Source: an uncultured archaeon (GTDB lineage Archaea > Asgardarchaeota > Lokiarchaeia > Sigyniarchaeales > SOKP01). From it: 13,779 nt of DNA. The stretch is taken from contig CAZGJX010000103.1 of NCBI GenBank assembly GCA_964525635.1, positions 1 to 13,779 on the forward strand, in the 5' to 3' direction. Every line of letters starts with the position of its first letter. Position 1 is the stretch's first letter. Positions 1-13,779 of this stretch are shown in pieces. Position numbers and translations under genes: made by a program. The notes under the pieces are model-generated. The model was not told where the DNA came from. It worked only from the letters and a program-made list of their open reading frames with translations, and did not search any database.

Positions 1-1531
1 GTGTTGTATCATCTAAATCAACTGTTTGAGCACCGCTTGCCGTACTAAATTCCGCTGAAGACTCTTTTACTAATTTAAATGCCGCTAAATTGTCAGTTTG
101 TGGACCACCAGTGAATATTGCATAGACAAACTTATCAGATTCCATTGTAACAGTTGCAGGATTTTGACTTCCGCTGATATCACCTTCCCAATGATCAAAT
201 GTCCAACCAGCAGACGGTATTGCTTGTACAGTTGCAATTTCTCCACTTAAATAGCCACTTGAAGATGGAGATACGCTACCTAGCCCAGATATTGCTGTAG
301 TTAAATAATAATCTGGACCCCCAGTGAATACTGCAGTGATAGATTTATCAGAATTCATTGTAATAGTCGTAGGATTTGCACTCCCGCTGATATCACCTTC
401 CCAATGATCAAATGTCCAATATTTATCAGCCGTTGCTTGTATAGTTGCAATTTCTCCACTTTGATAGCCACCTGAACGTGTTACGCTACCTCCCCCAATT
501 GTTGATGTAAGTAAATAATAATCGTATGTTTTTCCTCCAGGCCAATTTTCAAATTTGCCTTTCAAATAATTTCCCCAAGAAGTTAATGGCCCCATAAACA
601 CATTAGGTGCAAATATTGACCAAACCTCATCTTTATGATGTACTGACCATGCACACATACTAATACCCATGTCTTGACATGCATTTATCATTTCATTGGT
701 GCTTGTAGTTTGATCGCCATTTCCTCCAAATTCTGTTACCCATACTGCACTACCTGCATCCATAGCCGCCCCAACATTATTATAAAAATTCTGTAAATGA
801 CCTCCATAGGTATCGGGGTACCCATGGAAAGTGTATGCTGCATTAGAGTCTGTTATTGTATAAGATTCAGGATGTTGTGACCATTCGTGTGATCCACATA
901 AAATTAAGTTGTCAGGATCATATCGTCTAATTTCATTAGCAACATTTTGACAAAATCGTTGAATTTCCGTAGTTGATTGTGACGTTGGCTCATTATATAA
1001 TTCATATATAACATTTGGTGTATTACCATATTTTTGGGCCATATCTCCGAAAAATGATCTCGCATAATTCTCGTATGGAAGGAGATTTCCTTCACCATGA
1101 AAATCAATAATTACATAGATACCTCGATCTATTGCTGCTTCAACAACAGTTTCTATTTCTTCTACTGTATCTGATGGACCTACATCTTCCACCACTCCAT
1201 ATGCGGCTCTAACGACTGAAACCTTCATGATATCGACTAAATAATCAATAACATCGGCGGTATAATAATCTGGTGCCCACTGACTCCAGAAAAAGCTCAT
1301 TCCACCAAGAGAAATTTGCTCTCCAGTTTCTGAGCATACATTAGAACCGTAAACTTGTAATCTACCGTATTTATCAACAATTTTTTCAGCTCCATATTTA
1401 AGTTCCGTTTCAATTGAATTATAATTATTCGGTATATTGATAAATGGTAAAGTAGCACTAAATATTAATCCCCAGAATAAAACTATAAAAAGTGTTAGTC
1501 TTTTAAATCTATTATTTATAATTTTCAACAT
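1..1531 (-). CDS. Secreted modular glycoside hydrolase family 5 (GH5_2-like endoglucanase) with two InlB-B-like repeats and the probable start of an F5/8 type C (CBM32) domain; 3' end runs off the window
   Basis: Manual translation from ATG 1531: MLKIINNRFKRLTLFIVLFWGLIFSATLPF (signal/anchor), then YGRLQVYGS..GMSFFWSQW..VVRAAYGV..AAIDRGIYVIIDFH..PNVIYELYNEP (acid/base Glu, NEP at 986-994)..YTFHGY..VWVTEFG (nucleophile Glu, 731-733)..ISMCAWS. Two ~70-aa repeats follow, then DNLAAFKLVKESSAE..VDLDDTT. The frame stays open to the window edge. An SD-like AAAAAAGGT lies upstream. Confidence 0.93.
   Translation of the reverse strand, partial: MLKIINNRFKRLTLFIVLFWGLIFSATLPFINIPNNYNSIETELKYGAEKIVDKYGRLQVYGSNVCSETGEQISLGGMSFFWSQWAPDYYTADVIDYLVDIMKVSVVRAAYGVVEDVGPSDTVEEIETVVEAAIDRGIYVIIDFHGEGNLLPYENYARSFFGDMAQKYGNTPNVIYELYNEPTSQSTTEIQRFCQNVANEIRRYDPDNLILCGSHEWSQHPESYTITDSNAAYTFHGYPDTYGGHLQNFYNNVGAAMDAGSAVWVTEFGGNGDQTTSTNEMINACQDMGISMCAWSVHHKDEVWSIFAPNVFMGPLTSWGNYLKGKFENWPGGKTYDYYLLTSTIGGGSVTRSGGYQSGEIATIQATADKYWTFDHWEGDISGSANPTTITMNSDKSITAVFTGGPDYYLTTAISGLGSVSPSSSGYLSGEIATVQAIPSAGWTFDHWEGDISGSQNPATVTMESDKFVYAIFTGGPQTDNLAAFKLVKESSAEFSTASGAQTVDLDDTT
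101..523 (-). repeat. Two tandem intragenic repeats (210 and 213 bp) encoding divergent InlB B-repeat (Flg_new-like) domains
   Basis: Units are 314-523 (DYYLLTSTIGGGSV..WTFDHWEGDISGSANPTTITMNSDKSITAVFTGGP) and 101-313 (DYYLTTAISGLGSV..WTFDHWEGDISGSQNPATVTMESDKFVYAIFTGGP). An identical 36-nt stretch occurs at 171-206 and 384-419. Confidence 0.85.
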
Positions 1532-1638
1532 TTTATTTACCTTTTTTACAGAAATATTTACTCTTGAATATAAAAAAAGTATAGATTATTTCATATAACT
1601 ACTATATGAAATTACTATGACATTATCATTCAGAATCG

Positions 1639-1654
1639 TATTTAAATTTTCCTT
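1639..1654 (-). promoter_or_regulatory. Candidate archaeal BRE/TATA promoter for the GH5 gene
   Basis: The minus strand reads AAGGAAAA-TTTAAATA about 108 bp upstream of ATG 1531. The AT-rich background limits specificity. Confidence 0.35.
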
Positions 1655-2047
1655 TATTTCATGGGAGAAAAGGGAAATTATAAATAATACTACATAGAAA
1701 TATCAAGGATATTGAAAAATAACAAGGAAGTCCACAGCACCAAGATTTATTATAATCTGCAAATATATGAATAATAGGTTGATCTGAATATATTTTTTTT
1801 TTATTAATATAATTTTTCATTTCTTCTGAAACATAGTACTCTTGAAGTTTCTTATAGACGTTATTAAATCCCTCTTATAATATTTAAAATAAATTAATTA
1901 AATTTTATTTTCCTTCGATTATATCTCGAAATTATAAATCAAATGACCTTATATTTTTATATATTAATGTAAGAATTAAAGAATGTTAACAATTTCTTTT
2001 TTTATAATTTTAATCTTCTTAAAATTTAATAAAAGTGTGGATATCAC

Positions 2048-2122
2048 TTATAAAATCGAGTTTTGCAAAACAGTTATTTTGCACCCATTTTCCATTAAAA
2101 TTATCCTTTTTTCCATGGAAAA
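2048..2122 (+). repeat. Dispersed site copy 1 (type A right flank)
   Basis: TTATAAAATCGA-GTTTTGCAAAA-CAGTTA(2071-2076)-TTTTGCACCCA-TTTTCCATTAAAATTATCCTT-TTTTCCATGGAAAA(2109-2122). Confidence 0.92.
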
Positions 2123-2197
2123 TAATTTCTTAATATAATCATATAAAAAAAGATATCAATATTTCTAATTAATTAGTCTTTATTTTTAAAAATCTAA

Positions 2198-2617
2198 TCA
2201 AAAAGATATCAATTCAAGTTCTTCAAATCTTTTGAAATGTTTTTGATTGTTGGTAACTAGCTTTTTATAATCATTAGAAATGATAATTGCTGCAATAAGA
2301 CAGTCAAAAATATCTATTTCTTGTCCTTTTCCTCTTAATTTCATATATAATTTAGCCCCTAAAATAGCACTTTTCAAATCAAGAGAAAAACAATTTAATT
2401 CCTTAATCAACTGCTCCAAATCAAATGATAACTCGTTAAATTTACTTTTTGAAAGTTCCTTTTTTATATATTTAAGTTTATAAAGCCCATAATATAATTC
2501 AACAATTGAAGGAGATGTTATCCCAATTTTATCAGAACTTAATTTGGTAATTAAATCATCTAAAGTATTATTACCATTTAAAATCTCTATTGCAATATTT
2601 GTATCAATAAAAATCAT
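2198..2617 (-). CDS. vapC: VapC-family PIN-domain toxin
   Basis: 139 aa with PIN acidic motifs IFIDTN, SIVELYYG, DIFDCLIAA and LVTNNQKHF. It starts 1 bp downstream of the antitoxin stop. Confidence 0.93.
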   Translation of the reverse strand: MIFIDTNIAIEILNGNNTLDDLITKLSSDKIGITSPSIVELYYGLYKLKYIKKELSKSKFNELSFDLEQLIKELNCFSLDLKSAILGAKLYMKLRGKGQEIDIFDCLIAAIIISNDYKKLVTNNQKHFKRFEELELISF

Positions 2618-2618
2618 T

Positions 2619-2855
2619 TTAATGAAATCTCTTGCTTATATCATTACGAAGTTCTTTATGAGCAACTCCCATTATTTCAACATAATCCTTAGGTAAATCT
2701 TTCCAACGTCCAAAAAACGGTCTTAAATTACTCTTTTCTTTTTCCTCGTAACCTAATAATTTATCTATTAAATCAGATATAGTTTCATCTTTTTTTTTTT
2801 TCTTTAATAATCTTTTGTAAGTATCTTCATCAATATCTATTGTTTTTGATGTCAT
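2619..2855 (-). CDS. vapB: VapB antitoxin (DUF217-type)
   Basis: The likely start is ATG 2855 rather than 2933. MTSKTIDIDEDTYKRLLKKKKKDETISDLIDKLL matches the KTI.I.ED.Y..L...K...ESFSD.I..LL pattern, and the C-terminus has LRPFFGRW. It is coupled to vapC. Confidence 0.88.
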   Translation of the reverse strand: MTSKTIDIDEDTYKRLLKKKKKDETISDLIDKLLGYEEKEKSNLRPFFGRWKDLPKDYVEIMGVAHKELRNDISKRFH

Positions 2856-3179
2856 GATTATTTTCTCTAATTTATCTATAGAAAAATAAACAATACTAAT
2901 ATTAATAATTAAGTATATGTTGTTTTTTGTCAATTTAGAATAATACAGATTTTTCTATTATTCTTAAAACTCATTTTTGAATAATATAATGAACATCCAC
3001 TCAAATATCGTATGTATTTTAAGAATAATTATATTCAAGGATCTTAAAAATATATCTTGAAATTAAGAATCATTTGACTTTATATCATTTATATCTATAA
3101 TGCAAAAATATGATTATATTAATAATTATATCTATTATGTTTTAAACTTCTTATAATTTAATATGAGAAAGGATATTGC

Positions 3180-3298
3180 TTAGGAAATCGCATTTAGCAA
3201 AACAGTTATTTTACGACTAAAATTGATAGTAATAATAAAGTAATAGCCCAATTTTACTTTGATTTTCCATTAAGATTATCATTTTTTCCATGGAAAAA
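3180..3298 (+). repeat. Dispersed site copy 2 (type B right flank, then the shared TTTTCCAT tail)
   Basis: TTAGGAAATCGCATTTAGCAAAA-CAGTTA(3203-3208)-TTTTACGACTAAAATTG..; the tail ATTTTCCATTAAGATTATCATTTTTTCCATGGAAAAA sits 43 bp further from the core than in type A copies. Confidence 0.85.
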
Positions 3299-3349
3299 GA
3301 TTTTTTCTTAATCTAAATATCACTAATTCATTAGATAAAGGTTTAATAA

Positions 3350-3858
3350 TACTTTCCGAACACTGGAAAGCGAGGACGTCCAAAAAAACCCATCAAGGAG
3401 ATCCCTCCGTCACTTGTATATGCCCAAGTTCATAAACATCGGGAGCGGGGTAGAGTAAAAAAAGTTGATACTCATTGTATTTTTGGTACCGCAACTCAGG
3501 TAAAAGGACTTCTTTTAGACTCTCCTGTGAGTAATTCTGTTAATACTACGTTTCTTGAGCGAAATAACCTTACAATTCGGCAACAGAATGGTAGCTTTCA
3601 ACGTAAGACCTTACAATTTTCTAAGAAAAAAGAATTATTTTCGTCCCAATTACATCTTTTTTTTTTGGGTATTACCATTTCATTCGTTCCCATCACTCCT
3701 TACGGATAAAAAATAGCATGTTTTCTGAGAAATGGAAAAAACAGACACCATTTATGAGTGCTGGGATTACGGATCACATCTGGACCTTTCGGGAATTATA
3801 TTTTTATAAGAAATATTCTAAGAGAGGAGGTGAAACTTAACAATTATAGGACATTAAG
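3350..3858 (+). mobile_element. 3' remnant of an IS1-family element: frameshifted C-terminal transposase fragment plus right inverted repeat
   Basis: Translation reads FPNTGKRGRPKK..YAQVHKHRERGRVKKV..IFG..VNTTFLERNNLTIRQQNG..RKTLQFSKK, shifts frame in the T10 run at 3657-3666, then GYYHFIRSHHSL..QTPFMSAGITDHIWTFRELY, with stop at 3838-3840. The terminal AATTATAGGACATTAAG (3842-3858) matches 5828-5844. Confidence 0.85.
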
Positions 3859-4110
3859 GAAAGTTCATAATTTAATTATCATCTAAAATTAAAGCTTAAA
3901 TTTCAAATAATATAATTATTATGTATATATATATGAATTCACATAGTAAACTTTTTCTATAATTTATAATAGAATAGCTCCAGATAAAGATCTTATCCTT
4001 TAGTATTCTTTTTTTGATCTTTTATCAGATTAAATTAAATATCACATATTTCACGATCTTTATTCATGACATTTTTATAAAGTGAAAAATAAAAATGAAG
4101 ATAAAAAAAG

Positions 4111-4431
4111 TTAAGAAGTAGCTCTTTCAAGAGTTTTCTTCCAAGACGCATAATCTTGACCAGGTTTAAGTAATTTAAAAGATCTTCCTTCTTCATTACT
4201 TATTAATTTATAAAAATCACAAGCAATACATGTTAAAGCTTTCTTTGCATATGTACCTTGTTTTTCTCCTCCACAATATGTTCCAGCTATTGCCCAGCAG
4301 ATTCTACCTCCATTTCTTCCATGATTCACCCCATCACATGACATATCAATAGAAGCAGGACAAATTCCTAATTCAAAAACTTTTGAACCACCTGATTCTC
4401 TTCCACATTTTTTATATTCCCAACAATTCAT
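4111..4431 (-). CDS. Standalone Cys-rich two-CW domain protein (putative metal or Fe-S binding)
   Basis: 106 aa: NCWEYKKCGRE..GICPA..GVNHGRNGGRICWAIAGTYCGG..QGTYAKK..CIACDFY. Two CW motifs and a CxxC motif. Confidence 0.8.
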   Translation of the reverse strand: MNCWEYKKCGRESGGSKVFELGICPASIDMSCDGVNHGRNGGRICWAIAGTYCGGEKQGTYAKKALTCIACDFYKLISNEEGRSFKLLKPGQDYASWKKTLERATS

Positions 4432-4695
4432 AGAATTTTCTCTTTAACTTTATGGACAATATATCTATAGTCTAAATATCAATATTTATAGATAGATGCA
4501 ATAATTGATTCCAATCTCACATTAAATACATAAAATTTCAAATTGAGTCGTTTCATGATCTATATTCATGAAAAGGCTATGAAATAAAGAAAAATTCGGA
4601 AACTAAACCTCAAACTTTTATATCGAGTTCAAATTATTTTATGTACCTATTTAGTTTTTTGTTTAATGTAATATTAAAAAAGAGAAGTAAAATAT

Positions 4696-5400
4696 ATGCG
4701 GAAGATAAAAATATTTGCTTTGATATTGCTAATTTTAGTACCTAGTTCATTGATTTTTCAACCTGTGATAGCAGAAAAGATTGAAAATTCAGAAGTTGGT
4801 GTGAATTCTGATGATAAATTACTTTGGAAAATAACCCATCCTATTTCACCTATTTTACCTGAAGAATTAATAAGTCTTAATGTCACTCACATAAATAAGA
4901 TGAACAATAATCTTGTTCTTAATGCTTCTATTAGTGTATATAATGTAACAGGTCAATGGGAGACTGAATGTATCAATAAGGCAATATTAACTTATAATTA
5001 TTCAAGAAAATTCGTAGAATTTGAAAGACAATTAGAAATGACCCTCACACGAGGAAGAATTATGATATTAACGATTCCCATTCCCATTAATCTCACAATG
5101 ATTGGATTATATATAAATACTACTAGCACTGCTAAAGTTTGGTTAACTCATTTCGATATAGAGGGAAAAACATTGATAATGCATTATTTTGATGATTCTC
5201 AAGATTTAAAGATGACATTTAATGATAATGGAATTTTAGAAAAAGGAGATATAATTAGTAGTGGAATAGTGATTCACAGTACTCAGTTTAACATAGAATC
5301 AAAAGGATCGATTTCATTTAGTTTTTATTTTTTGATACCATTGATTATAGGAATTTCGTCTTTATTAGTTTGGAAGAGAGATAAAGTTAAATTACACTAG
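4696..5400 (+). CDS. Hypothetical exported protein with C-terminal membrane anchor
   Basis: N-terminal MRKIK plus a hydrophobic stretch ending VIA (signal peptide). Several N-x-S/T sequons (NVT, NAS, NYS, NLT, NTT). C-terminal SISFSFYFLIPLIIGISSLLVW followed by basic KRDKVK. Confidence 0.8.
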   Translation: MRKIKIFALILLILVPSSLIFQPVIAEKIENSEVGVNSDDKLLWKITHPISPILPEELISLNVTHINKMNNNLVLNASISVYNVTGQWETECINKAILTYNYSRKFVEFERQLEMTLTRGRIMILTIPIPINLTMIGLYINTTSTAKVWLTHFDIEGKTLIMHYFDDSQDLKMTFNDNGILEKGDIISSGIVIHSTQFNIESKGSISFSFYFLIPLIIGISSLLVWKRDKVKLH

Positions 5401-5484
5401 AAGAAATTAAACATAAAAAAGTTTATTTCATTGAATTAAAATTGTAAAATAAGAGATAGAATAGGATATTTATATTTTTAATTC

Positions 5485-5844
5485 TTTTTTTTTTCTTCAG
5501 ATAAATGAAATCCAAAAAAGGGAGTTTCTTTTCGTTCAGAAAAGGCTTTTTTTACATGTTTTACATACAAAAAGATTTTGAGATGATTTTATTCCATATT
5601 TACGTCTAAAGAAGATGTTGTCTTTCCCGATGATTCCATAGGATTCACAAGGTTCATTTGGACATACTAATTCTTTTGATTTTTCTTCCATTCGCGTTTT
5701 ATATTGCATTTTCTCCTCTTTTTGTTGGGATTCTCTTTCTTGTAAGAGTTGAGGTTCTATCATATTATCACCATAATATGAGAGGAGAAATGGTATTAAA
5801 AAAGAAAGTAATATGGAGGTATATAAGAATTATAGGACACTAAG
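5485..5844 (-). mobile_element. 5' remnant of an IS1-family element: left inverted repeat plus N-terminal zinc-finger region of the transposase, frameshifted and truncated
   Basis: The minus strand begins CTTAGTGTCCTATAATT (5844-5828). SD GGTGAT precedes ATG 5763. Translation reads ..LVCPNEPCESYG..YG..QNLFVCKTCKK, has an extra A in the run at 5547-5553, then AFSERKETPFFGFHLSEEK. Homology is lost near 5485. Confidence 0.8.
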
Positions 5845-5872
5845 CAATAATTAATGATGTGAGTTATATTGA

Positions 5873-5947
5873 TTATAAGAACGAGTTTTGCAAAACAGTT
5901 ATTTTGCACCCATTTTCCATTAAATTATTCAATTTTTCCATGGAAAA
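5873..5947 (+). repeat. Dispersed site copy 3 (type A)
   Basis: TTATAAGAACGA-GTTTTGCAAAA-CAGTTA(5896-5901)-TTTTGCACCCA-TTTTCCATTAAATTATTCAAT-TTTTCCATGGAAAA(5934-5947). Ungapped against copy 1. Confidence 0.92.
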
Positions 5948-6109
5948 AAAAGTTTTTCAAAATAATATATTTAATAGAATATTTTAATTGAAAAATAAAA
6001 GATGGAACATTCCTTTAGAGGATATGATATTCTCTTTTAGGATGAATTTATTTTCATTGGATAATTAGGTATCTTTAATGAAATTTCTATAAAATATTAC
6101 TTAAATTAA

Positions 6110-6745
6110 ATGAAAAATATTATGGAAAAAAAACAAAAAATAGCAATTATCTTACCATTAATTATTCTCACTACGATGCTTGGAGTTTTCCATGGATTAA
6201 GTTTTATTTTTAATAAAGCGATTCTTTTTGATAGAGAAATAGCATGGTATGTAGGGTTTTGGATATATTGGCCTATTTATTGTCTAATAATTCCATTTTT
6301 GTTACTAGGAAAGGATGATTTTAAATCAATATTTCAGAGGAAAAAACAAACAATTTCAACTTTAAGTTTAAATATTATTCCTTTTCTTATAACGATTATA
6401 GGAATGATATTCATATTGGACAACAAGGAGAAATCCCTTATGGAGATTTTTATTATTATAATCTATTCATTTGGAAATGGTTTTTTTGAAGAAATATTAT
6501 GGAGAGGTTTGTATGCTAAATTATTTGAAAAAAAGATCATTTTGGGATATCTTTGGCCTACTATATGGTTTTCTTTATGGCATATTGCCCCTGGAACTCT
6601 TTCTATAAACTTCATGGTGACATTATGTATTGGGGCATTAATTTATGGTGTTTGTTGGGGATGGAGTGCATATAAAACAAAAAGTATTATTTATAGTGGA
6701 TTGTCTCATACATCAACAGGTCTTGTTCAAATATTTTCTTTTTAA
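6110..6745 (+). CDS. CPBP-family (CAAX/Abi) intramembrane glutamic endopeptidase
   Basis: Multi-TM protein with the family motifs EEILWRG (EExxxR), FSLWH (FxxxH) and a C-terminal LSH. Confidence 0.9.
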   Translation: MKNIMEKKQKIAIILPLIILTTMLGVFHGLSFIFNKAILFDREIAWYVGFWIYWPIYCLIIPFLLLGKDDFKSIFQRKKQTISTLSLNIIPFLITIIGMIFILDNKEKSLMEIFIIIIYSFGNGFFEEILWRGLYAKLFEKKIILGYLWPTIWFSLWHIAPGTLSINFMVTLCIGALIYGVCWGWSAYKTKSIIYSGLSHTSTGLVQIFSF

Positions 6746-6764
6746 AATTTTAAATAAAAAAAAA

Positions 6765-7148
6765 ATGATTATAATGAACGACTTAAATCAAACTAAAGAC
6801 AATAAAAATAAAACCTTTAGTTATAAAAAATTGTTACGATGGTCTCGTTTAAAATGGTTAATTATAACTATTCCACCAATAATATTCCTTTTTCGAGCAA
6901 TCCAACTTTTCATCATAGGTGATCCAGGAACTATAATTCAGGTAATTGGAGTCACATGGGGATGGATTATATTAATATTTGAATTTTTATTTTCCATCAT
7001 TACATTAATTGGATGTCTTTTTTTATGGATAAAAGATTTAGAAATACAATACAGAAAATTAATAGTTCTCCTGATTTTAATCTTCTTTATACTTGCTTTC
7101 ACAATGCATATTTCTCGATTAATTAATTATTTAGGTTCCATTTATTAA
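6765..7148 (+). CDS. Hypothetical membrane protein with about 3 TM helices, probably co-transcribed with the CPBP gene
   Basis: The likely start is ATG 6765 or 6774, because the track start at 6645 overlaps the upstream gene. Three hydrophobic segments. Confidence 0.65.
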   Translation: MIIMNDLNQTKDNKNKTFSYKKLLRWSRLKWLIITIPPIIFLFRAIQLFIIGDPGTIIQVIGVTWGWIILIFEFLFSIITLIGCLFLWIKDLEIQYRKLIVLLILIFFILAFTMHISRLINYLGSIY

Positions 7149-7535
7149 ATTTGAAGGAGGTAATTTAATTAAACTTAGATTCAAGTATATTCTTTATTTT
7201 TCTTTTAATAAGATATTTTCTCTAAATTTAAGGTATAGAATTTGTTCCATGTTATATAAAAACTCCCTCTTCTTATCCCATCTGTATTTATTTTTTAAAT
7301 GAGAATATATGTGGGGAGATTTTTAAAATAAATATATTTCTTTTATAGATATAGTTATTAATCCTCTTTTTAGTGTAAAATGTTATTTTTAAAAATAAAT
7401 TTTTTATAAATCTTACAAATTGGAATCATTCATGGACATATTGATTAATTATGCTTTGAACAATCCATTATATTATTGAAAAAGCCCCTTATTTATCGTG
7501 ATCTCCTCAGATCCTATTAGAATAGAGCCCATAGT

Positions 7536-7610
7536 CTATAAAAGCGCGTTTTGCAAAACAGTTATTTCACGATTAAAATTGTAAATTATGATAAAATAAT
7601 AGTAAATTTT
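7536..7610 (+). repeat. Dispersed site copy 4 (type B right flank, no clear TTTTCCAT tail)
   Basis: CTATAAAAGCGC-GTTTTGCAAAA-CAGTTA(7559-7564)-TTTCACGATTAAAATTGTAAATTATGATAAAATAATAG. The right flank matches copy 2 at 30 of 38 positions without gaps. Confidence 0.85.
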
Positions 7611-7842
7611 CATACCTGAAACTCTAATATAAATAAATTTATATCTATTTGAATAATAATATGGAAAAATTAAAAAAACAATTTAGAGATGTTTTTTTTA
7701 TGAGATATTAAATAATTTCTTCCAATAATTGAGGTATGACTGTGATTATTGATTCTGTCGGCTTAGTTGAGGAAGAAAAGGATTTTTTTACCCTGAAGGT
7801 AAAAAAATAACATAGTGTATATTCGTGGTATATACTTTCCGC

Positions 7843-7861
7843 TCGATTCCCCCCGACTCCA
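7843..7861 (+). other. tRNA/tmRNA-like 3'-end fragment (T-loop, 3' T-stem, acceptor strand, discriminator); possible displaced att fragment
   Basis: TCGATT-CCCCC-CGACTCC-A parses as tRNA positions 55-73 with U70 and A73. The 5' T-stem and the 5' half are absent. Confidence 0.45.
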
Positions 7862-8031
7862 TTATGAATCTCTGAAAAGCTAGAGTACATATTAGAGGTT
7901 TTAATTCTTCACAACTATGATATTGTAATTAATGATTGAGATTTCTATAATTTCTCTAATATATTTTACCAATTTTAAAAATACCATTTAATAGAAATCA
8001 TATATAAATAAGCTTATATTAAAAAAATTGA

Positions 8032-8106
8032 TTATAGTCCTTTCTTTTGAAAAACAGTTATTTTGTATCCAATTTCCATTAAAAAAATCTCCTTTTCTAT
8101 GAAAAA
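8032..8106 (+). repeat. Dispersed site copy 5 (degenerate type A)
   Basis: TTATAGTCCTTT-CTTTTGAAAAA-CAGTTA(8055-8060)-TTTTGTATCCA-ATTTCCATTAAAAAAATCTCC-TTTTCTATGAAAAA. Same register as copies 1 and 3. Confidence 0.8.
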
Positions 8107-8637
8107 TACTTTTTACATAGATAATATTATAAAAACTCAATAATTTTTTGCTTTATTATTACTCTAATTATTATTCAAATTTACCAAATAAATTATAATC
8201 TTATAGTTGAGATATCTAATAAATTTATATTATATCCTTCAATCTTAGCACCTGAGAAATCAATAATGAATGGTTCAATAAGAAATCATTGTGATTAATA
8301 TGAATAATTAAAATTTGATTGAAAATTTAAACTTAGAAATGATTAAAGAAGGATAGATGAACAATAATAGTAAACTATTTATTTATATTAACGATTTTCT
8401 AATTTCCGAATTAATCTATAAAATATTATATTAAATAATTACTTTTTTTATTGTTCTTTTTTGAAAAGTAATGTAAAGAATTCAAGAATATCTGAAATAT
8501 TAATACAAGTAGGGATATAATGGAAAATTAATCGATATTATTATTTTAAAAATATTATCGATTATATAAATATAAAAAAGAATACTATAATTAGAATAAA
8601 TTTTTACAGAGATCTTATATTAATTGAGATTGAATGA

Positions 8638-9660
8638 TTATTCATTAGTAGTATATATAAAGTTTCTTTCTCCAAGTATTTCATCGATCTCTTTCATTTG
8701 ATTGGTAGTTAAAGGTTCAAATTCCATTGCTAAAATATTTTCTTCAACTTGTTTTTCTGATTTAAATCCAGGTATGGGAATTGTATTTTCACTTCCTGCC
8801 CATATCCAAGCTAAAGCTCCTTGTACCATTGAACGTCCTTCACTTCTAAGTATTTCTCTAATTTTTTCCCTTTTTTCTAGCCAATCTGGATTAGGCTTTC
8901 CGTCCTTGAAATAATTATAATAATCAGGTGCATTTTTTTTGCTTCTATTATCATTCTCTGGAATCACTGAATTTGCAAAATATTTATCTGAAAGAAGTCC
9001 CATTGCTAATGGTGATCGATTAATACTCGCTAGATTTTTTTTTTCACATAGTTCAATTATTTCATTCATATTATGAAGAACATTTGATTCATGTTCAATT
9101 GCTACAGAATTTGAATTTTTTACAAAATATTCAGATAAATCATAAAGATCAGTGCTCCAACCATATGATCTTATTAATCCTTCATCAATTAATCCTTCTA
9201 GGGTATCTCTAATAGGAATTAAATCTTCTTTTGAAACTGACCAAGCATGTAGCCAATATAGATCAATATAATCTGTATTTAACCGTTGTAAAGATGATTC
9301 ACATGCCTTTTTAATATAATTTAGACTAATATTTACATTCCCACTTGCTATCTTAGTTTCCATATCAAATGTATATCCAAATTTAGTTGCAATAATAATA
9401 TGATCTCTATACTCTTCAAGAGCTTTACCAAGAACTTCTTCACTATGACCTGCACCATAGACATCCGCAGTATCAAAAAAATTAATTCCTAAATCTATAG
9501 CACGCTCGATTGCTTTAATTGATTCTTTATCATTTACTTAACCATAACTACTTTCTCTTCCTTGAAAAATAAATGGTCCTCCAATTGGCCAATAACCTAA
9601 ACCCATTGCACTTACTTTAATATCTGATTGACCTAGGATTCTTTTATTAATTTTTGGCAT
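8638..9660 (-). pseudogene. Aldo/keto reductase interrupted by one in-frame TAA
   Basis: From ATG 9660: MPKINKRILGQSDIKVSAMGLGYWPIGGP..SSYG*VNDKES..GINFFDTADVYGAGHSEEVLGKAL..IIATKFG. This is in frame with the track ORF 8638-9363 (SLQRLNTDYIDLYWLH, SPLAMGLL, PIPG). The stop is codon 41, at 9538-9540. Confidence 0.88.
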
Positions 9661-9973
9661 AATTTCTAACCTTTTTTCTATTTAAAATATTGTTATTAAT
9701 AGGTTTAATTATCAACTATTAGTTATTTCTAAATTCTTGAGTTTATAAGTTATTAATTTTTTAAATTTTTTTTTTAAATATATTATCCATTAATTTCCGA
9801 CAAATCTTCTATACTACTATTCTTGATCTTTCCAATACTATTGTCAACCTATACTTATTTTTCTTCTTTTTCTTCTCTTAGATGACGATACAGTCTATTA
9901 TGCAATCATGGTCACCAACCATTATCTGGTGAACCAATACTTTATTCAAGTGAAAGAGCTTCATTCCGATAGA

Positions 9974-9981
9974 TTTAAATA
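9974..9981 (+). promoter_or_regulatory. Candidate TATA box for a leaderless transposase transcript
   Basis: TTTAAATA ends 25 bp before ATG 10006, the usual archaeal TATA-to-start spacing for a leaderless mRNA. Confidence 0.5.
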
Positions 9982-10005
9982 CTATTGTGCACCAATATGT
10001 GCATA

Positions 10006-11658
10006 ATGGTATTTTTAGTAAAAAAGGTTGTAAAAGGGAATACTTATCTTTATCTCGAGGAACGAGCCTGGATCAATGGAAAATCTAAAAGATTATGGCA
10101 AAAATATCTCGGTCCTGAAGATAGGATAAAAGAATACTTTGAACCCTTGACAAGACCAGAATATACCATTACGACTCTTGATTTTGGACTCCCACTTGCT
10201 CTAATGCAACTCGTAAAAAGACTCGATCTCATCAAAATAATCAATGATTGCTCAAATAAACGAGCTCAAGGATTATCATTGGGACATTATATCGTGCTGG
10301 CAGCTTTAAATCGTTGCGTGAAACCAACTTCCAAAGTAAAGATCCGCAAGTGGTTTGAAAACACCGTGCTTTTCGAGGAATTCCCCCCGATCGAAACTTA
10401 TTTAGATTCAATGTCTTACACAAACCATTTTAAATATTTAACTCCTGAAATTATTGATAAGATTGAAGTTTGCATTCATAAGAAACTTCTTACGAAATTT
10501 GACGTGGAAATGAAGGCTTTGTTCTACGATCCTACCAATTTTTTTACTTACATCAATCCTAAATTAGACATGGAACTTCCTAATCACGGACACTCCAAGG
10601 ACGGGCGATTCACACTCAATCTCATTGGATTAACTCTTTTTTGCACTCAAGATGGCGGACTTCCCGTGATGCACGAAGTATATCCAGGGAACGTTCAGAA
10701 TGCCCCGCTTTTTAATGACGAATTAAAGCGTATTTTTAAGCGACTTAAACGCATTGGGGCAAGTAATGAAGAATTATGCTTGATATTTGATAAGGGAAAT
10801 ATCTCTCCCAATGCATTTGATCAAATTAATGATTCGGGCATTCATTTTATTTGTTCAATCCGTCCCAGCACACGAAAAGACCTTCTTATGTTGCCTGCGA
10901 GTAAATTTGCTCTTGAAATGCTTCCTAATGGAAAGAAAGTAGGTGTGCTTGAATTTAAACATGAAAAATACGGAAAAAATCATAGACTTTTTGCAGTTTA
11001 CAATCCCAATCAGAGAGAATGGCAAGAAAACAACCTCAAGAAAAAGCTCGAAAAACGGCTCTCAGAAGTGGAAGAGTGGTTTAAAGAGAGGTTAAATACG
11101 AAAAAATGGAGAGAGCCGGAAAATGTTGAGAAAAAAATTCGGGATATCATTAAAAACGATGCATATTTCAATTGGATTAAATACTCAATCTCGGGAGATT
11201 ACGGAAGAGTTAATTATTCTATTGGAATTGATAACGAGGCATTAGAAACTCATTTAGATACGCTCGGCAAGACTTTCATTCTCACTAACCACCCGACAAT
11301 GAGATCTCTTGAAGTGATTTGGTTATTCAGGCAACAATTCACAATAGAACGTGTGTTTTCCTATATTAAATCACCTACAACACTCTCAATTCGACCCCAA
11401 TACTGCCATTCGGACAATAGCATTCGAGGTCATGCCTTCACGTGTATTCTGGGGCTATTACTCCTTACCCTCTTAACGCGAGAGATCCAACGTAAATATA
11501 AAAACATGAGCCTTCCTAAGATCATAGAATTGCTCTCAGAAATCGAGTTAGCAATAATAAAGTATGAGGGCGCGACAAAGAATATTAAAAAAATGGTAGA
11601 AGTCTCGAAAGAAGCTCTAAATTTGTCTAATTTCTTAAGGCTTGAAGAATATATTTGA
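10006..11658 (+). CDS. IS1634-family DDE transposase
   Basis: About 550 aa, likely starting at ATG 10006 (MVFLVKKVVKGNTYLYL..). Motifs LFYDPTNFFTY, GHSKDGR, LIFDKGN and FRQQFTIERVFSYIK..IRP.Y..D..IRGH are characteristic of IS1634. Confidence 0.93.
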   Translation: MVFLVKKVVKGNTYLYLEERAWINGKSKRLWQKYLGPEDRIKEYFEPLTRPEYTITTLDFGLPLALMQLVKRLDLIKIINDCSNKRAQGLSLGHYIVLAALNRCVKPTSKVKIRKWFENTVLFEEFPPIETYLDSMSYTNHFKYLTPEIIDKIEVCIHKKLLTKFDVEMKALFYDPTNFFTYINPKLDMELPNHGHSKDGRFTLNLIGLTLFCTQDGGLPVMHEVYPGNVQNAPLFNDELKRIFKRLKRIGASNEELCLIFDKGNISPNAFDQINDSGIHFICSIRPSTRKDLLMLPASKFALEMLPNGKKVGVLEFKHEKYGKNHRLFAVYNPNQREWQENNLKKKLEKRLSEVEEWFKERLNTKKWREPENVEKKIRDIIKNDAYFNWIKYSISGDYGRVNYSIGIDNEALETHLDTLGKTFILTNHPTMRSLEVIWLFRQQFTIERVFSYIKSPTTLSIRPQYCHSDNSIRGHAFTCILGLLLLTLLTREIQRKYKNMSLPKIIELLSEIELAIIKYEGATKNIKKMVEVSKEALNLSNFLRLEEYI

Positions 11659-12326
11659 TATAAATATTGTATGGTCACTAACTTTTTTATTACACCTTTA
11701 GAGAATCCCATCTTTTATAGTTACAGAACAAAAAAGTTTTGAATGAGTGATAACTTATAAACTCAAGAAATTAAATAAATATTTAAATTTTATCCTTCGA
11801 ATATTCCATATCATTGATTGAGGTTTGAATAATTTGATTATATGCTGAATTTAACTTAAGATATTTAATTTTAGAGTCAAAATTTTTTCTAATTATACTA
11901 TTTTTTTTTAGATATTATATAATAATCATTTTGATAAAATTCGATATAAAAAACTATCCATTTTATCTATTTTCGAATTTATAAGTTTTGATATTGTATA
12001 ATAGTTAATTCACTTTTTTTAAAAAAAAAAAAATAATGTTTATTATTTTCCCTTGATGTATTTAAATTTTTATCATGATTTTCAATTAATGAAAGGATTT
12101 TTTTAGTTATTACTAACTAATATTAATCTATTATATACTTAGTGAAAGGATAGAAAGTTTTTATTAATAAAAATCACACAAAAATTCTGTTTTGTACCAT
12201 CGTTTTGTTAAAATATCTTTTATTCCTTGAAAATGACTTTTATCTATATATAAGGCTACTTTTTTAATGATAATTCTTTTATAATATTAAGAATAAATTA
12301 TTTTAAATAAGATAGAATAAATATTC

Positions 12327-13187
12327 ATGAAATCGATAGATATAGAAAAAAACCATAAGAACTTCTTAATTTCTTTTAAACAAAATTATCCATGCAAAGA
12401 ATTAGAAATTAAAGATAAAAAATGGCTATATGTAGATTCTGGAACTAATGGACCTCTTTTAGTGTTATTACATGGTGGTTTTTCTAATTCATACTTTTTC
12501 TTCCATCAAATTCCACTATTTGAAAAAAAATATAATATTATCGCCCCAACAATTCCTGAAGGATTAAATAATTTGAAAGATATTGTTGAATCTCTCAAAG
12601 AATTAATTATTTTAGAAAATAAAAATAAATCTCCGATTTCTTTCTTAGGTATTTCTTTTGGAGGAATAATAGCCCAAGTTTTTCTTCATCATTATCCAAA
12701 AATGTTGGACAAAGTCATATTATCACATACAGGAATACCTCAAAATTGGCGGCAAAAAAAATTCCTTTTTATGTATTGTATATATAAAATACTTCCTTAT
12801 TCATTAATTAGGAGATTTGCTAAAAAAATAGCAATAAAAAAAGATTCTACCATCACTTCAAAATGGACTATCGCTAATTCACAATATTTTGCTGAATTAG
12901 GAGAAGACTATCTCTCTAAAAAATTATTCTTATCAAGATTTCAAGGAATTCTTGATTTTAAAAAATATGAATTAGATCCTCTCATTATGAAGAAATGGAA
13001 TGGTAAAATCTTAATTTTAGCTTCAGAAGATGATCGATTGGTTTATCAAGTACCTCTTATGAAATCATATTATAAAGAAGCTATTGTTCATGTGTTCCAA
13101 AAAGGAAAAGGTGGGCACCATACTAACTTATATTTTCCTGAAGATTACAATACAAGAGTAAAAACTTTTTTAGAGAAAAATAAATAG
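12327..13187 (+). CDS. Alpha/beta-fold hydrolase
   Basis: LVLLHGG oxyanion motif, GISFGG nucleophile elbow, ILASEDD acid residue and GGHH catalytic His region. Confidence 0.9.
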   Translation: MKSIDIEKNHKNFLISFKQNYPCKELEIKDKKWLYVDSGTNGPLLVLLHGGFSNSYFFFHQIPLFEKKYNIIAPTIPEGLNNLKDIVESLKELIILENKNKSPISFLGISFGGIIAQVFLHHYPKMLDKVILSHTGIPQNWRQKKFLFMYCIYKILPYSLIRRFAKKIAIKKDSTITSKWTIANSQYFAELGEDYLSKKLFLSRFQGILDFKKYELDPLIMKKWNGKILILASEDDRLVYQVPLMKSYYKEAIVHVFQKGKGGHHTNLYFPEDYNTRVKTFLEKNK

Positions 13188-13489
13188 TATATTAGTCTAA
13201 TATAATTAAATCTCTGATATTTTTTTTATTATTAAATCATGGAGATTATAGATTATATTACATTATTCTTAATCAAATTAAATATCATTTCAAGTATTTA
13301 TTATTTTATGTTTTAAATAATAGTTTAGATATATTAAAGTTTCTAATATATATTGACTTGCCTAATTTTAATATATCAATAAAAATATTTACTTGATTAT
13401 ATTTTATCTTTATAGAACTTATTGATCTGATTTCTACCTGTATTATACTTTATAACCAATTATTCTTTTAAAAACCTTTTTATCCTTAT

Positions 13490-13542
13490 ACAGTTATTTT
13501 GCATCCATTTTCCATTAAAATATTTTCATTTTCCATGGAAAA
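13490..13542 (+). repeat. Dispersed site copy 6 (type A right half only; left arm replaced)
   Basis: ..TATCCTTATA-CAGTTA(13491-13496)-TTTTGCATCCA-TTTTCCATTAAAATATTTTCA-TTTTCCATGGAAAA(13529-13542). Confidence 0.88.
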
Positions 13543-13613
13543 TAAATTAAAACAATGTTAAAATTCAAATAGAGACACTTCAATTCCACTTATTGGAAGA
13601 ATCTATTCCATTA

Positions 13614-13779
13614 TTAATGATTATTAATGGGATCAATCCTATTTAGAAGTTTAATTTTATCAAAATCTTTGTCATGAGAGTAAATATTTTTAATATTATG
13701 TTCCAAAAGACTAGCTGCAATTAATGAATCTCTTCCACCAGTATTATATTCCTCAGAAATATTAAAAGCAAATAATATT
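13614..13779 (-). CDS. vapC: C-terminal part of a second VapC/PIN-domain toxin; 5' end lies outside the window
   Basis: Manual translation ILFAFNISEEYNTGGRDSLIAASLLEHNIKNIYSHDKDFDKIKLLNRIDPINNH* shows the PIN C-terminal motifs D.LIAA and IYS.D.DF. Stop at 13614-13616. Confidence 0.85.
   Translation of the reverse strand, partial: ILFAFNISEEYNTGGRDSLIAASLLEHNIKNIYSHDKDFDKIKLLNRIDPINNH

Follow-up and report, generated by a model that had tools for sequence, protein, structure and literature searches.

The window analysed here (the whole stretch of DNA, 13,779 nucleotides) lies within an array in which mutually unrelated modules of 0.2-6 kb meet at junctions of two inverted arms around a 6-bp spacer. 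Our favoured reading, to which we give a probability of roughly 0.6, is that these modules are non-autonomous cassettes accreted in tandem by a tyrosine recombinase acting in trans, namely that of an RHH-gene operon carried by integrative elements. If true, Loki-type Asgard archaea have an integron-like route for gene swapping with six-base joints. The original prediction, made from sequence alone, of a recombination-type cassette array with non-attC sites in an Asgard archaeon, its enzyme encoded elsewhere, is supported; the probable Asgard host fits, the congeners being named Promethearchaeota.

ACAGTTATTT occurs exactly six times in the window, always on the + strand, at 2070, 3202, 5895, 7558, 8054 and 13490. 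This recount confirms the six co-oriented sites and cores predicted earlier, as well as modules of 1132, 2693, 1663, 496 and 5436 bp, the last measuring 3399 bp without its IS. The cargo was confirmed by HMM (PIN plus VapB, two-CW, Rce1/CPBP, AKR, DDE transposase, alpha/beta hydrolase), except that for the supposed IS1 remnants only the multi-copy nature of both pieces is established, by self-BLAST. The claim of six copies of one site failed in part: each copy is a chimera of a left arm and a distinct right arm, and the earlier count had missed a half-site (4043-4055) and, at 3246, a seventh junction whose spacer is GCCCAA. The features are listed in Table 1.

Table 1. Features of the window, with positions counted from its first nucleotide.
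Feature	Position	Strand	Details
GH5 glycoside-hydrolase module (3.4 kb), 3' part and right A-type end	1..2070		Starts upstream of window; PF00150; sister contigs L074/L076
Junction 1: A arm - CAGTTA (2071-2076) - X arm	2021..2124	+	
VapBC module	2077..3202		vapC 2198-2617 and vapB 2619-2855, both minus; Pfam
Junction 2: A - CAGTTA (3203-3208) - target-type Y, then recurrent 37-bp end piece	3153..3245	+	
Extra junction: spacer GCCCAA and X arm	3246..3300	+	X score 50 bits
Multi-copy IS1-like remnant	3352..3865; second piece 5479-5854		Self-BLAST; family label without HMM support
Half-site: 6-mer, TTTCACG and Z arm (a different recurrent end type)	4043..4075	+	
Two-CW protein	4111-4431	minus	NF045718
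Membrane-anchored surface protein	4696-5400	plus	
Junction 3: A - CAGTTA (5896-5901) - X	5846..5949	+	
CPBP protease (6110-6745) and membrane protein (6765-7148) module	5902..7558	+	
Junction 4: A - CAGTTA (7559-7564) - Y	7509..7580	+	
Gene-less module with tRNA-Ala(GGC) 3' end (7842-7861) between conserved arms	7565..8054	+	
Junction 5: short non-A left arm - CAGTTA (8055-8060) - X	8030..8108	+	
AKR, IS1634 and alpha/beta hydrolase module	8061..13490		
AKR	8638-9660	minus	One internal stop in frame
IS1634	9736-11767		5-bp AAATT duplication
Alpha/beta hydrolase	12327-13187	plus	
Junction 6: short B-type left arm - CAGTTA (13491-13496) - X	13478..13544	+	
Next module, start: second vapC	13497..13779	minus	Runs on into C213; sister contig L082

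Each junction consists of a module end of ~50 bp, a 6-bp spacer and another module end. The arm-6-arm arrangement is gapless, with a variable spacer and invariant inner arms, and the inverted arms pair solely at a gap of 6 (10 matches vs 0-2 at gaps 3-5 and 7-9). Module ends (X on the left, A or its variants on the right) are imperfect inverted repeats with internal repeats; the X arm bears two TTTCCAT repeats 21 bp apart. The core 10-mer alone, with 1 mismatch allowed, is weak against shuffles (15/200 reach six copies). The extended arm profiles score 24-67 bits, and a shuffled or reversed genome yields 0-1 matches per 4.45 Mb. Rfam and ARAGORN searches of the window gave no match. Core matches on viral contigs were chance occurrences in bacterial phages, and the X-arm motif had no match there.

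The array continues past both window ends, where sister assemblies join contig C225 upstream and C213 downstream. The joined array spans ~20.5 kb with at least 12 junctions, and the GH5 gene counts among its modules. Genome-wide we counted 64 junctions, with 33 of 35 neighbouring pairs co-oriented (p=2e-8). Cargo genes, which comprise toxin-antitoxin pairs, defence genes and surface genes, show no orientation bias (27 vs 34), and the predicted independence of site orientation from neighbouring genes held. Only four species, all from a single Promethearchaeota genus, were found to have the extended site form. The arrays form a network of about ten or more target loci and not one platform, because the palindromic targets they occupy are numerous and dispersed, and every target has a spacer of its own; the earlier idea of a single tandem capture platform is refined accordingly. 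Clustering on short contigs is partly an effect of repeats breaking the assembly, and the array repeats account for islands ending up on such contigs. No recombinase was found at the array, and the claim that it is encoded elsewhere is supported. Random orientation and breakpoints lying off the sites would have refuted the prediction; neither was met, because orientation is non-random and breakpoints coincide with sites.

Other species have copies of these modules next to different neighbours. Where arm classes differ, homology switches at the spacer, as seen for the VapBC, CPBP, second VapBC, GNAT/MBL and ATPase modules; module shuffling with breakpoints at the site, a proposed check, is thus shown. 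A VapBC copy of 89% identity (C139:376-1520) becomes homologous directly past the spacer, there CTCAGC, and a further copy exists in G001. The CPBP copy in G003 is 95% identical, yet both neighbours differ and its right arm is X instead of Y. The module downstream of junction 6 follows A-type arms in C152 and G003, with homology beginning at the spacer. The GH5 module has a 95% identical copy in G001 (spacers CGCACT left, CAGTAA right), and the two-CW/surface-protein cargo (4111..5400) has 92-93% copies in other contexts in G001 and G002, where the Z arm adjoins palindromes and the surface-protein gene. Moreover, the 37-bp end piece of junction 2 recurs in C45, G001 C38 and G003 C255, each time followed by a different locus spacer. 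The VapBC, GH5 and C192 sub-modules carry one local and one foreign 6-mer, the foreign one on the right. Such mixed spacers, together with different spacers on 88%-identical elements, make strict core homology unfit and leave the chemistry unsettled. The rule that every insertion leaves one foreign spacer, known from Tn916, failed for complete elements.

The 496-bp module, previously described as lacking a gene, carries a tRNA-Ala 3' end that matches G000's own tRNA on C88 at 18/20 positions. About ten copies (71-77%) exist in G001/G003, and in G002 its right half follows an intact tRNA-Ala. From these comparisons we infer that it resembles the attP of a second system, which targets tRNAs.

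Empty target sites have the palindromic sequence CGTGAAA-N6-TTTCACG, which was found in 43/61 relatives and is multi-copy in 41/45 genomes of the same family (control 0). It is intergenic in 49/50 cases; of the 43 palindromes that could be classified, 12 are flanked by convergent genes (background 17%), and the median distance is shorter to a stop (90 bp) than to a start (262 bp). Of the 27 G000 junction spacers, ten are identical to a spacer found in congeners' palindromes, against 0.2 expected, and GCCCAA is also the spacer of full palindromes in G001 and G002. CTCAGC, CTGTCC and CTAAAC recur across genera, with unrelated neighbours at the loci checked. One flank, C35, leads on into two alternatives: an empty site on C179 and a filled one on C210, the latter compared at its left junction only. 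Duplication of the target 6-mer upon insertion is shown in two empty/filled pairs: a 10.1-kb insertion in G293 has CCACTC on both sides (empty in G049; G020 also compared), and a 12.8-kb insertion in G038 has CAGCAA on both sides (empty in G036). The outer 6-mer of arrays behaves like such a duplicated core, and outer spacers also match around genus arrays (C45, C82, G001 C85, G002 C248). A search for excised circles in four runs, confined to assembled contigs, returned joints near sites that were indistinguishable from other copies.

Autonomous elements use the same target. Lokiarchaeia integrative elements with an RHH gene and a tyrosine recombinase start at a half-site in 13/34 cases, and no exact half-site was found near the RHH gene in the other 21/34. 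An exact half-site precedes the RHH gene in 9/29 elements (0.66 expected), at 78-103 bp in eight and 462 bp in one. The first few of these elements were found via the motif itself; among those fetched by protein alone, 4/5 have the half-site. The single recombinase, encoded at the very end of autonomous elements bounded by the same junctions, has 300-340 aa, a SAM-like N-terminus, no arm-binding domain, conserved R, K, HxxR, H (H/W) and Y, and the recombinase fold. Beyond the inner arm, element left ends weakly resemble X (p=0.006). Remnants lie within arrays: G000 C167 has an RHH piece ~180 bp past an X end and a recombinase C-terminus, G003 a 28-aa piece identical to P0052, and the G002 C248 element a further piece. 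No intact member of this recombinase family was found in G000-G003, and only about 25/135 family genomes have one. An autonomous element with true X/A ends was not found, including among the recombinases closest to the remnants, nor was a second junction for the G292 element. A broken integrase on C211 was set aside, being absent from G001-G003 with that query and having no site nearby in the stretch examined. Serine recombinases are present in all four genomes (G000-G003).

We propose that a tyrosine recombinase integrated small non-autonomous modules and that the sites are the resulting junctions. The module ends would offer an inner recombinase arm and helically phased accessory repeats, with strand exchange across the 6-bp spacer. 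Primary targets would be the intergenic palindromes. Each insertion would regenerate arm-N6-arm junctions, so that later modules would be appended in tandem with a shared orientation, and blocks could remobilise. The enzyme would most likely be the recombinase of the Lokiarchaeia RHH operon, supplied in trans from a visiting or unassembled element, and the cassettes appear to be eroded derivatives of those elements. The identity of the enzyme for the modules, circular intermediates, the role of the repeats and present-day activity are inferred; no circle or enzyme activity has been shown. Against this reading stands the lack of an intact enzyme in G000-G003, while XerA is intact nearly everywhere.

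The main rival, which remains possible, is that host XerA acts, the palindromes being multiple dif-like sites and the modules exploiting Xer like IMEX or pdif modules; the accessory repeats would then be bound by a host factor. XerA (NF040815 above cut-off) is the only intact tyrosine recombinase common to all four genomes, and many genomes that carry 5-14 perfect palindromes have no other intact one. In 7 genomes xerA has a palindrome about 1-8 kb upstream, and in G058 a palindrome and a XerC-like gene are 24 bp apart. The conservation of perfect arms from genus to genus suggests that a host protein binds them, and inverted arms separated by 6 bp are consistent with archaeal dif (PMC8371274). 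Known dif sites have a TAA/TTA inner motif, but the arms lack it. Complete family-f2 genomes have XerA and no exact palindrome, and by eye no residue or feature in the XerA tree and alignment tracks palindrome number. Moreover, elements at these targets bring their own recombinase, and the xerA linkage was inherited by common descent rather than arising independently, and this genus lacks it. We regard it as unlikely that the modules are MITE/MIC-like passengers of a palindrome-targeting DDE or other transposase, the 6-mer being an ordinary TSD. Clean insertions with the target 6-mer on both sides, near-identical elements at different spacers and the imperfect inverted-repeat ends with internal repeats would suit it. 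However, autonomous elements with the same junctions encode a tyrosine recombinase, of which the array remnants are pieces, and CTCAGC, CTGTCC and CTAAAC are recurrent across genera. The IS1634 and ISH3-like transposases within arrays inserted secondarily, and IS1634 brings its own duplication and its own ends, which differ from X/A.

It is very unlikely that the repeats serve a transcription factor as operators or as promoter/terminator units, with modules moving by homologous recombination between them. The palindrome is indeed intergenic, multi-copy and conserved, but its placement between convergent genes and nearer to stops than starts counts against this, as do the empty/filled pairs; where arms are unlike, the homology switch falls at the spacer, and RecA-type exchange would have no room. 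As a sole explanation it is largely refuted. Binding of the empty palindrome by a host protein is still conceivable, yet leaves the arrays unexplained. A degenerate integron array (CALIN) with divergent attC sites is all but excluded. In its favour, Asgard MAGs show an enrichment of integrons and CALINs (PMC9668308), the arrays resemble these in cargo and tandem layout, and the core contains GTT. Against it, motif search and folding, without a covariance model, found no RYYYAAC, GTTRRRY, upstream core complement or long bottom-strand hairpin. Conservation extends to both sides of the crossover, and cargo is not co-oriented. IntI was not found, either near arrays or by TIGR02249, whose best scores were 91 and 48 bits against a cut-off of 265; XerA and the first element-recombinase member fall below that cut-off, and other members give weak E-values.

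A bolder reading, on which the balance tips slightly to the negative, is that Lokiarchaeia have their own integron-like system on dispersed host palindromes with locus-specific 6-bp spacers. Viruses, plasmid-like elements and enzyme-less cassettes would all dock at this shared network of palindromes, and the enzyme would come from a tyrosine recombinase family not yet described or would be XerA, acting at many dif-like sites. The enzyme would accept any spacer, yet the target's 6-mer would end up on both sides, and the system would be nested in part within tRNA-Ala-targeted units. We found no description of the motif or system in the literature searched, most subscription papers lying outside its coverage. 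As for the favoured cassette mechanism, the target motif, candidate enzyme and empty/filled allele pairs are now named, which makes it directly testable in E. coli or in vitro. To our knowledge there is no genetic system for Asgard archaea, and a compact recombinase with a known native landing site is a possible basis for an Asgard integration tool.

Among known systems, Yucahu (PMC11529989), aloposons (PMC8813620) and Fylgjavirus (10.64898/2026.02.13.705702) share tyrosine-recombinase or intergenic integration and short att duplications. Excision has been shown for Yucahu (PMC11529989) and Fylgjavirus (10.64898/2026.02.13.705702), and aloposons use tRNA sites (PMC8813620). Neither a palindromic target in common nor cassette arrays nor non-autonomous modules are described in the relevant sections of these papers. 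A published Fylgjavirus outward primer ends in TCGTGA, resembling the arm, which is a lead only; the empty site was not located in a genome apparently of strain B35. Xer/dif, IMEX and Acinetobacter pdif modules (PMC5357621, PMC6449649, PMC13141974) likewise have inverted arms around 6 bp, and pdif and IMEX modules are small, toxin-antitoxin-rich and shuffled; the AAAA-N6-TTTT inner geometry of the Asgard sites recalls difH. Adjacent pdif sites alternate in orientation, whereas ours stand in direct repeat (33/35 adjacent pairs), and the pdif analogy of the original prediction fails on this point. Unlike Xer/pdif sites, moreover, these are chromosomal and dispersed, their arms are unlike XerC/D boxes, and a dedicated element-borne recombinase is available.

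Tn916, Tn554 and SEs (PMC12084037, PMC10214605) also have a palindromic target with a variable central 6 bp abutted by the element ends, and our modules with one local and one foreign 6-mer, the latter on the right, follow the SE/Tn554 rule. In contrast, complete Lokiarchaeia insertions have the same 6-mer on both sides, the host is archaeal, and there are long arrays of enzyme-less derivatives. A single recombinase of ~305 aa plus an RHH protein also differs from their gene sets (Int with an arm-binding domain and Xis; TnpABC; IntA/Tfp/IntB/Srap). Like integrons and CALINs, archaeal ones included (PMC9668308), the arrays are made of mobile modules unrelated to one another, rich in toxin-antitoxin and defence genes and set between co-oriented sites in tandem, and the enzyme may act in trans. 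Unlike integrons, they have no attC fold or boxes, no IntI and no single attI or promoter; instead, they are built from double-stranded arm-6-arm junctions with two distinct module ends, at many target loci and with cargo in either orientation.

The window is the complete contig C103 of a 4.45 Mb, 27% GC genome (G000) whose congeners (G001-G003) are labelled Promethearchaeota. The original prediction, of six co-oriented sites dividing unrelated cargo, held for the position, plus-strand orientation and intergenic placement of every copy, as well as for the lengths and cargo of the modules and the subtraction of IS1634; a junction with spacer GCCCAA was absent from its list. The 10-mer shared by the copies is weak evidence by itself, unlike the ~100-bp context, for which profile nulls give 0-1 matches per genome. 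A gapless alignment of twenty-one sites resolves into a left arm, a 6-bp spacer and a right arm; the spacer varies, whereas the four bases to its left and the three to its right are invariant. Right arm X contains two TTTCCAT repeats 21 bp apart, of which left arm A has weaker inverted counterparts. Junctions are of classes A-X, A-Y (Y being a short arm, TTTYACGA) and other-X, all three of which occur in the window. RYYYAAC, GTTRRRY and a long hairpin ending at the core are all absent, and the sites are therefore not attC.

Coordinates of features discussed in the text (G, genomes; C, contigs; L, retrieved stretches)
Feature	Location	Remark
Junction GCCCAA	window 3246	
Other end families	G002 C248 (L296:2706-7960), L057, window 4043-4075	
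Gene-less module	window 7565-8054	
AKR gene	window 8638-9660	single internal stop codon
Phosphate-uptake module	G000 C152:289-6292	6 kb, site-bounded
Second integrase gene	G000 C211:1-620	broken by assembly gap and contig end
tRNA-Ala	G000 C88:8427-8500	
Virus-like and primase/helicase- or MCM-encoding forms	G041 C6:25,700-42,000 (L216), L179, L365	contain the recombinase
Near-perfect palindrome	G058, L180:7951-7970	24 bp upstream of XerC-like recombinase

Across 28 contigs of the source genome we found 64 junctions, 28 of them with spacer CAGTTA; neighbouring junctions share an orientation in 33 of 35 pairs and the median module size is 1.75 kb. The window's array spans C225 to C213 in sister assemblies of the same population (at least 12 junctions, ~20.5 kb). 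Among 185,579 species representatives the X-arm motif was detected in this genus alone, save one chance match. Cargo genes show no orientation bias and are mainly toxin-antitoxin pairs, ATPase-type defence candidates, methyltransferases and surface proteins, with a phosphate-transport operon also present. The module holding the latter (PstS, permease, PstB and PhoU-like genes, by sequence inspection) has a different left spacer in G003. A few arrays are convergent or divergent (including G000 C186, L020, L024 and L056), as expected if a symmetric target is usable in both orientations. AKR paralogues elsewhere (72-74%) lack bounding sites. An ATPase and partner resembling PADLOC HEC-01 lie beside DprA in G000 C214 and directly behind a recombinase in the related genome G008. 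The second integrase gene adjoins a lactate/malate dehydrogenase.

Modules recur in different company. A copy of the VapBC module on C139 (89%) begins directly after the spacer, with another left arm and another spacer. The CPBP module has a 95% identical copy in G003, where neither neighbour is the same and the right junction bears an X rather than a Y arm. Downstream of site 6, the next module is preceded by a B arm in the window and by A arms elsewhere. Wherever arm classes differ, the identity switch falls at the spacer. Two continuations exist for the end of C35, one an empty site (C179) and the other an X-ended module (C210), reflecting strain polymorphism or a duplicated flank. In run X19 (2022 metagenome) the depth of the GH5 stretch is ~7 times that of the CPBP module, and modules 2 and 5 are covered only in part; with contigs only, this is at most a hint of module-level variation.

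Arms not belonging to elements pair at a 6-bp gap only, giving the palindrome CGTGAAA-N6-TTTCACG. It occurs in 1-14 copies in 43 of 61 relatives and is present in 41/45 family genomes (control counts zero); other Asgard families seldom contain it. Palindrome spacers of congeners equal 10 of 27 junction spacers of G000 (0.2 expected), and G001 holds a full palindrome with spacer CAGTTA. Some congener palindromes are themselves junctions, with the inner arm of the X-type end perfect. Palindromes lie between genes, often convergent ones, and closer to stop than to start codons, a placement that speaks against a role as operators alone. Several element families share these sites: other ends at the same target include one family with GGTACC-containing terminal inverted repeats and another we term the Z arm. 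Perfect or near-perfect palindromes with differing spacers also lie ~1-8 kb upstream of xerA in seven relatives (G016, G013, G007, G006, G043, G051, G018), most of which have xerA flanked by trxB and a cdc6-like gene. The XerC-like recombinase of G058 is only distantly related to the Loki XerA clade.

Walking outward from near-palindromes revealed, in a complete genome, a 320-aa recombinase behind a ribbon-helix-helix (RHH) gene. This operon defines a family with the full catalytic set and recombinase fold, ~27% identical to XerA and, where shown, scoring under curated cut-offs. Of 29 elements, 9 have an exact half-site upstream of the RHH gene (0.66 expected), as do 4 of 5 further elements retrieved by protein alone. 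For two elements, of 10.1 kb (CCACTC on both sides) and 12.8 kb (CAGCAA on both sides), empty alleles exist in relatives; several elements are plasmid- or virus-like. Inside the G038 element is a near-palindrome whose spacer differs. An outward primer published for the circular form of Fylgjavirus has TCGTGA at its end, matching the arm, and this virus inserts into intergenic DNA with an inverted repeat (bioRxiv 10.64898/2026.02.13.705702). Within this genus only remnants of the family occur, located inside arrays: C167 has a fragment of RHH immediately within an X end as well as a recombinase C-terminus; an array of G003 has a C-terminal piece with 28 residues identical to a full-length member; and a 5.2-kb element of G002, with CTATGA on its flanks, has a further piece. 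A fourth, in G002, is beside a tRNA, and some members may therefore target tRNAs instead. In G008 the recombinase adjoins the same ATPase pair carried as cargo in G000 (88% DNA identity).

The gene-less module contains a tRNA-Ala(GGC) 3′ end between conserved arms, is attP-like with two hairpins and is multi-copy in G001 and G003. In G002 its right half comes after the intact tRNA-Ala, and a contig of G001 corresponds exactly to a single unit, running from one tRNA-type core to another with a cassette block inside. By inference, there may be tRNA-targeted units carrying a CAGTTA-type landing site, which could explain the dominance of that spacer. The G000 tRNA-Ala, missing from the ARAGORN calls listed, carries additional bases close to the D-loop, and the same hairpins lie downstream of it.

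The best explanation, which we favour by a modest margin (probability about 0.6), is that non-autonomous modules are integrated in trans by the RHH-operon tyrosine recombinase. A module would circularise by recombination between its own ends and integrate at an arm-N6-arm site, each product junction again being a target, so that arrays would extend in a single orientation and move blockwise. The local 6-mer recurs at the outer boundaries of complete insertions, internal modules often combine a local left spacer with CAGTTA at the right, and elements with 88% identical enzymes occupy different spacers. Sequence alone does not distinguish between carry-over, copying of the target 6-mer, and strict homology with rare switching; circles, RHH direction control and current activity are inferred.

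A serious rival, which remains possible, is that XerA, the host recombinase, is the acting enzyme. It is the only intact tyrosine recombinase common to all four genomes and the sole enzyme always present, and its gene often has palindromes nearby. A bolder reading, in which dispersed host palindromes form a shared docking network, we consider less likely than not.

No published description of the system was found in the literature searched. The array works similarly to an integron and to a pdif array, but fails defining tests of each. Target geometry is shared with Tn916, Tn554 and SE, whereas their genes are not; the local-left, CAGTTA-right spacers often found at internal modules, though not the 6-mer repeated around complete insertions, match the SE/Tn554 rule (PMC10214605). 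We class the system as tyrosine-recombinase integrative elements with cassette-like derivatives.
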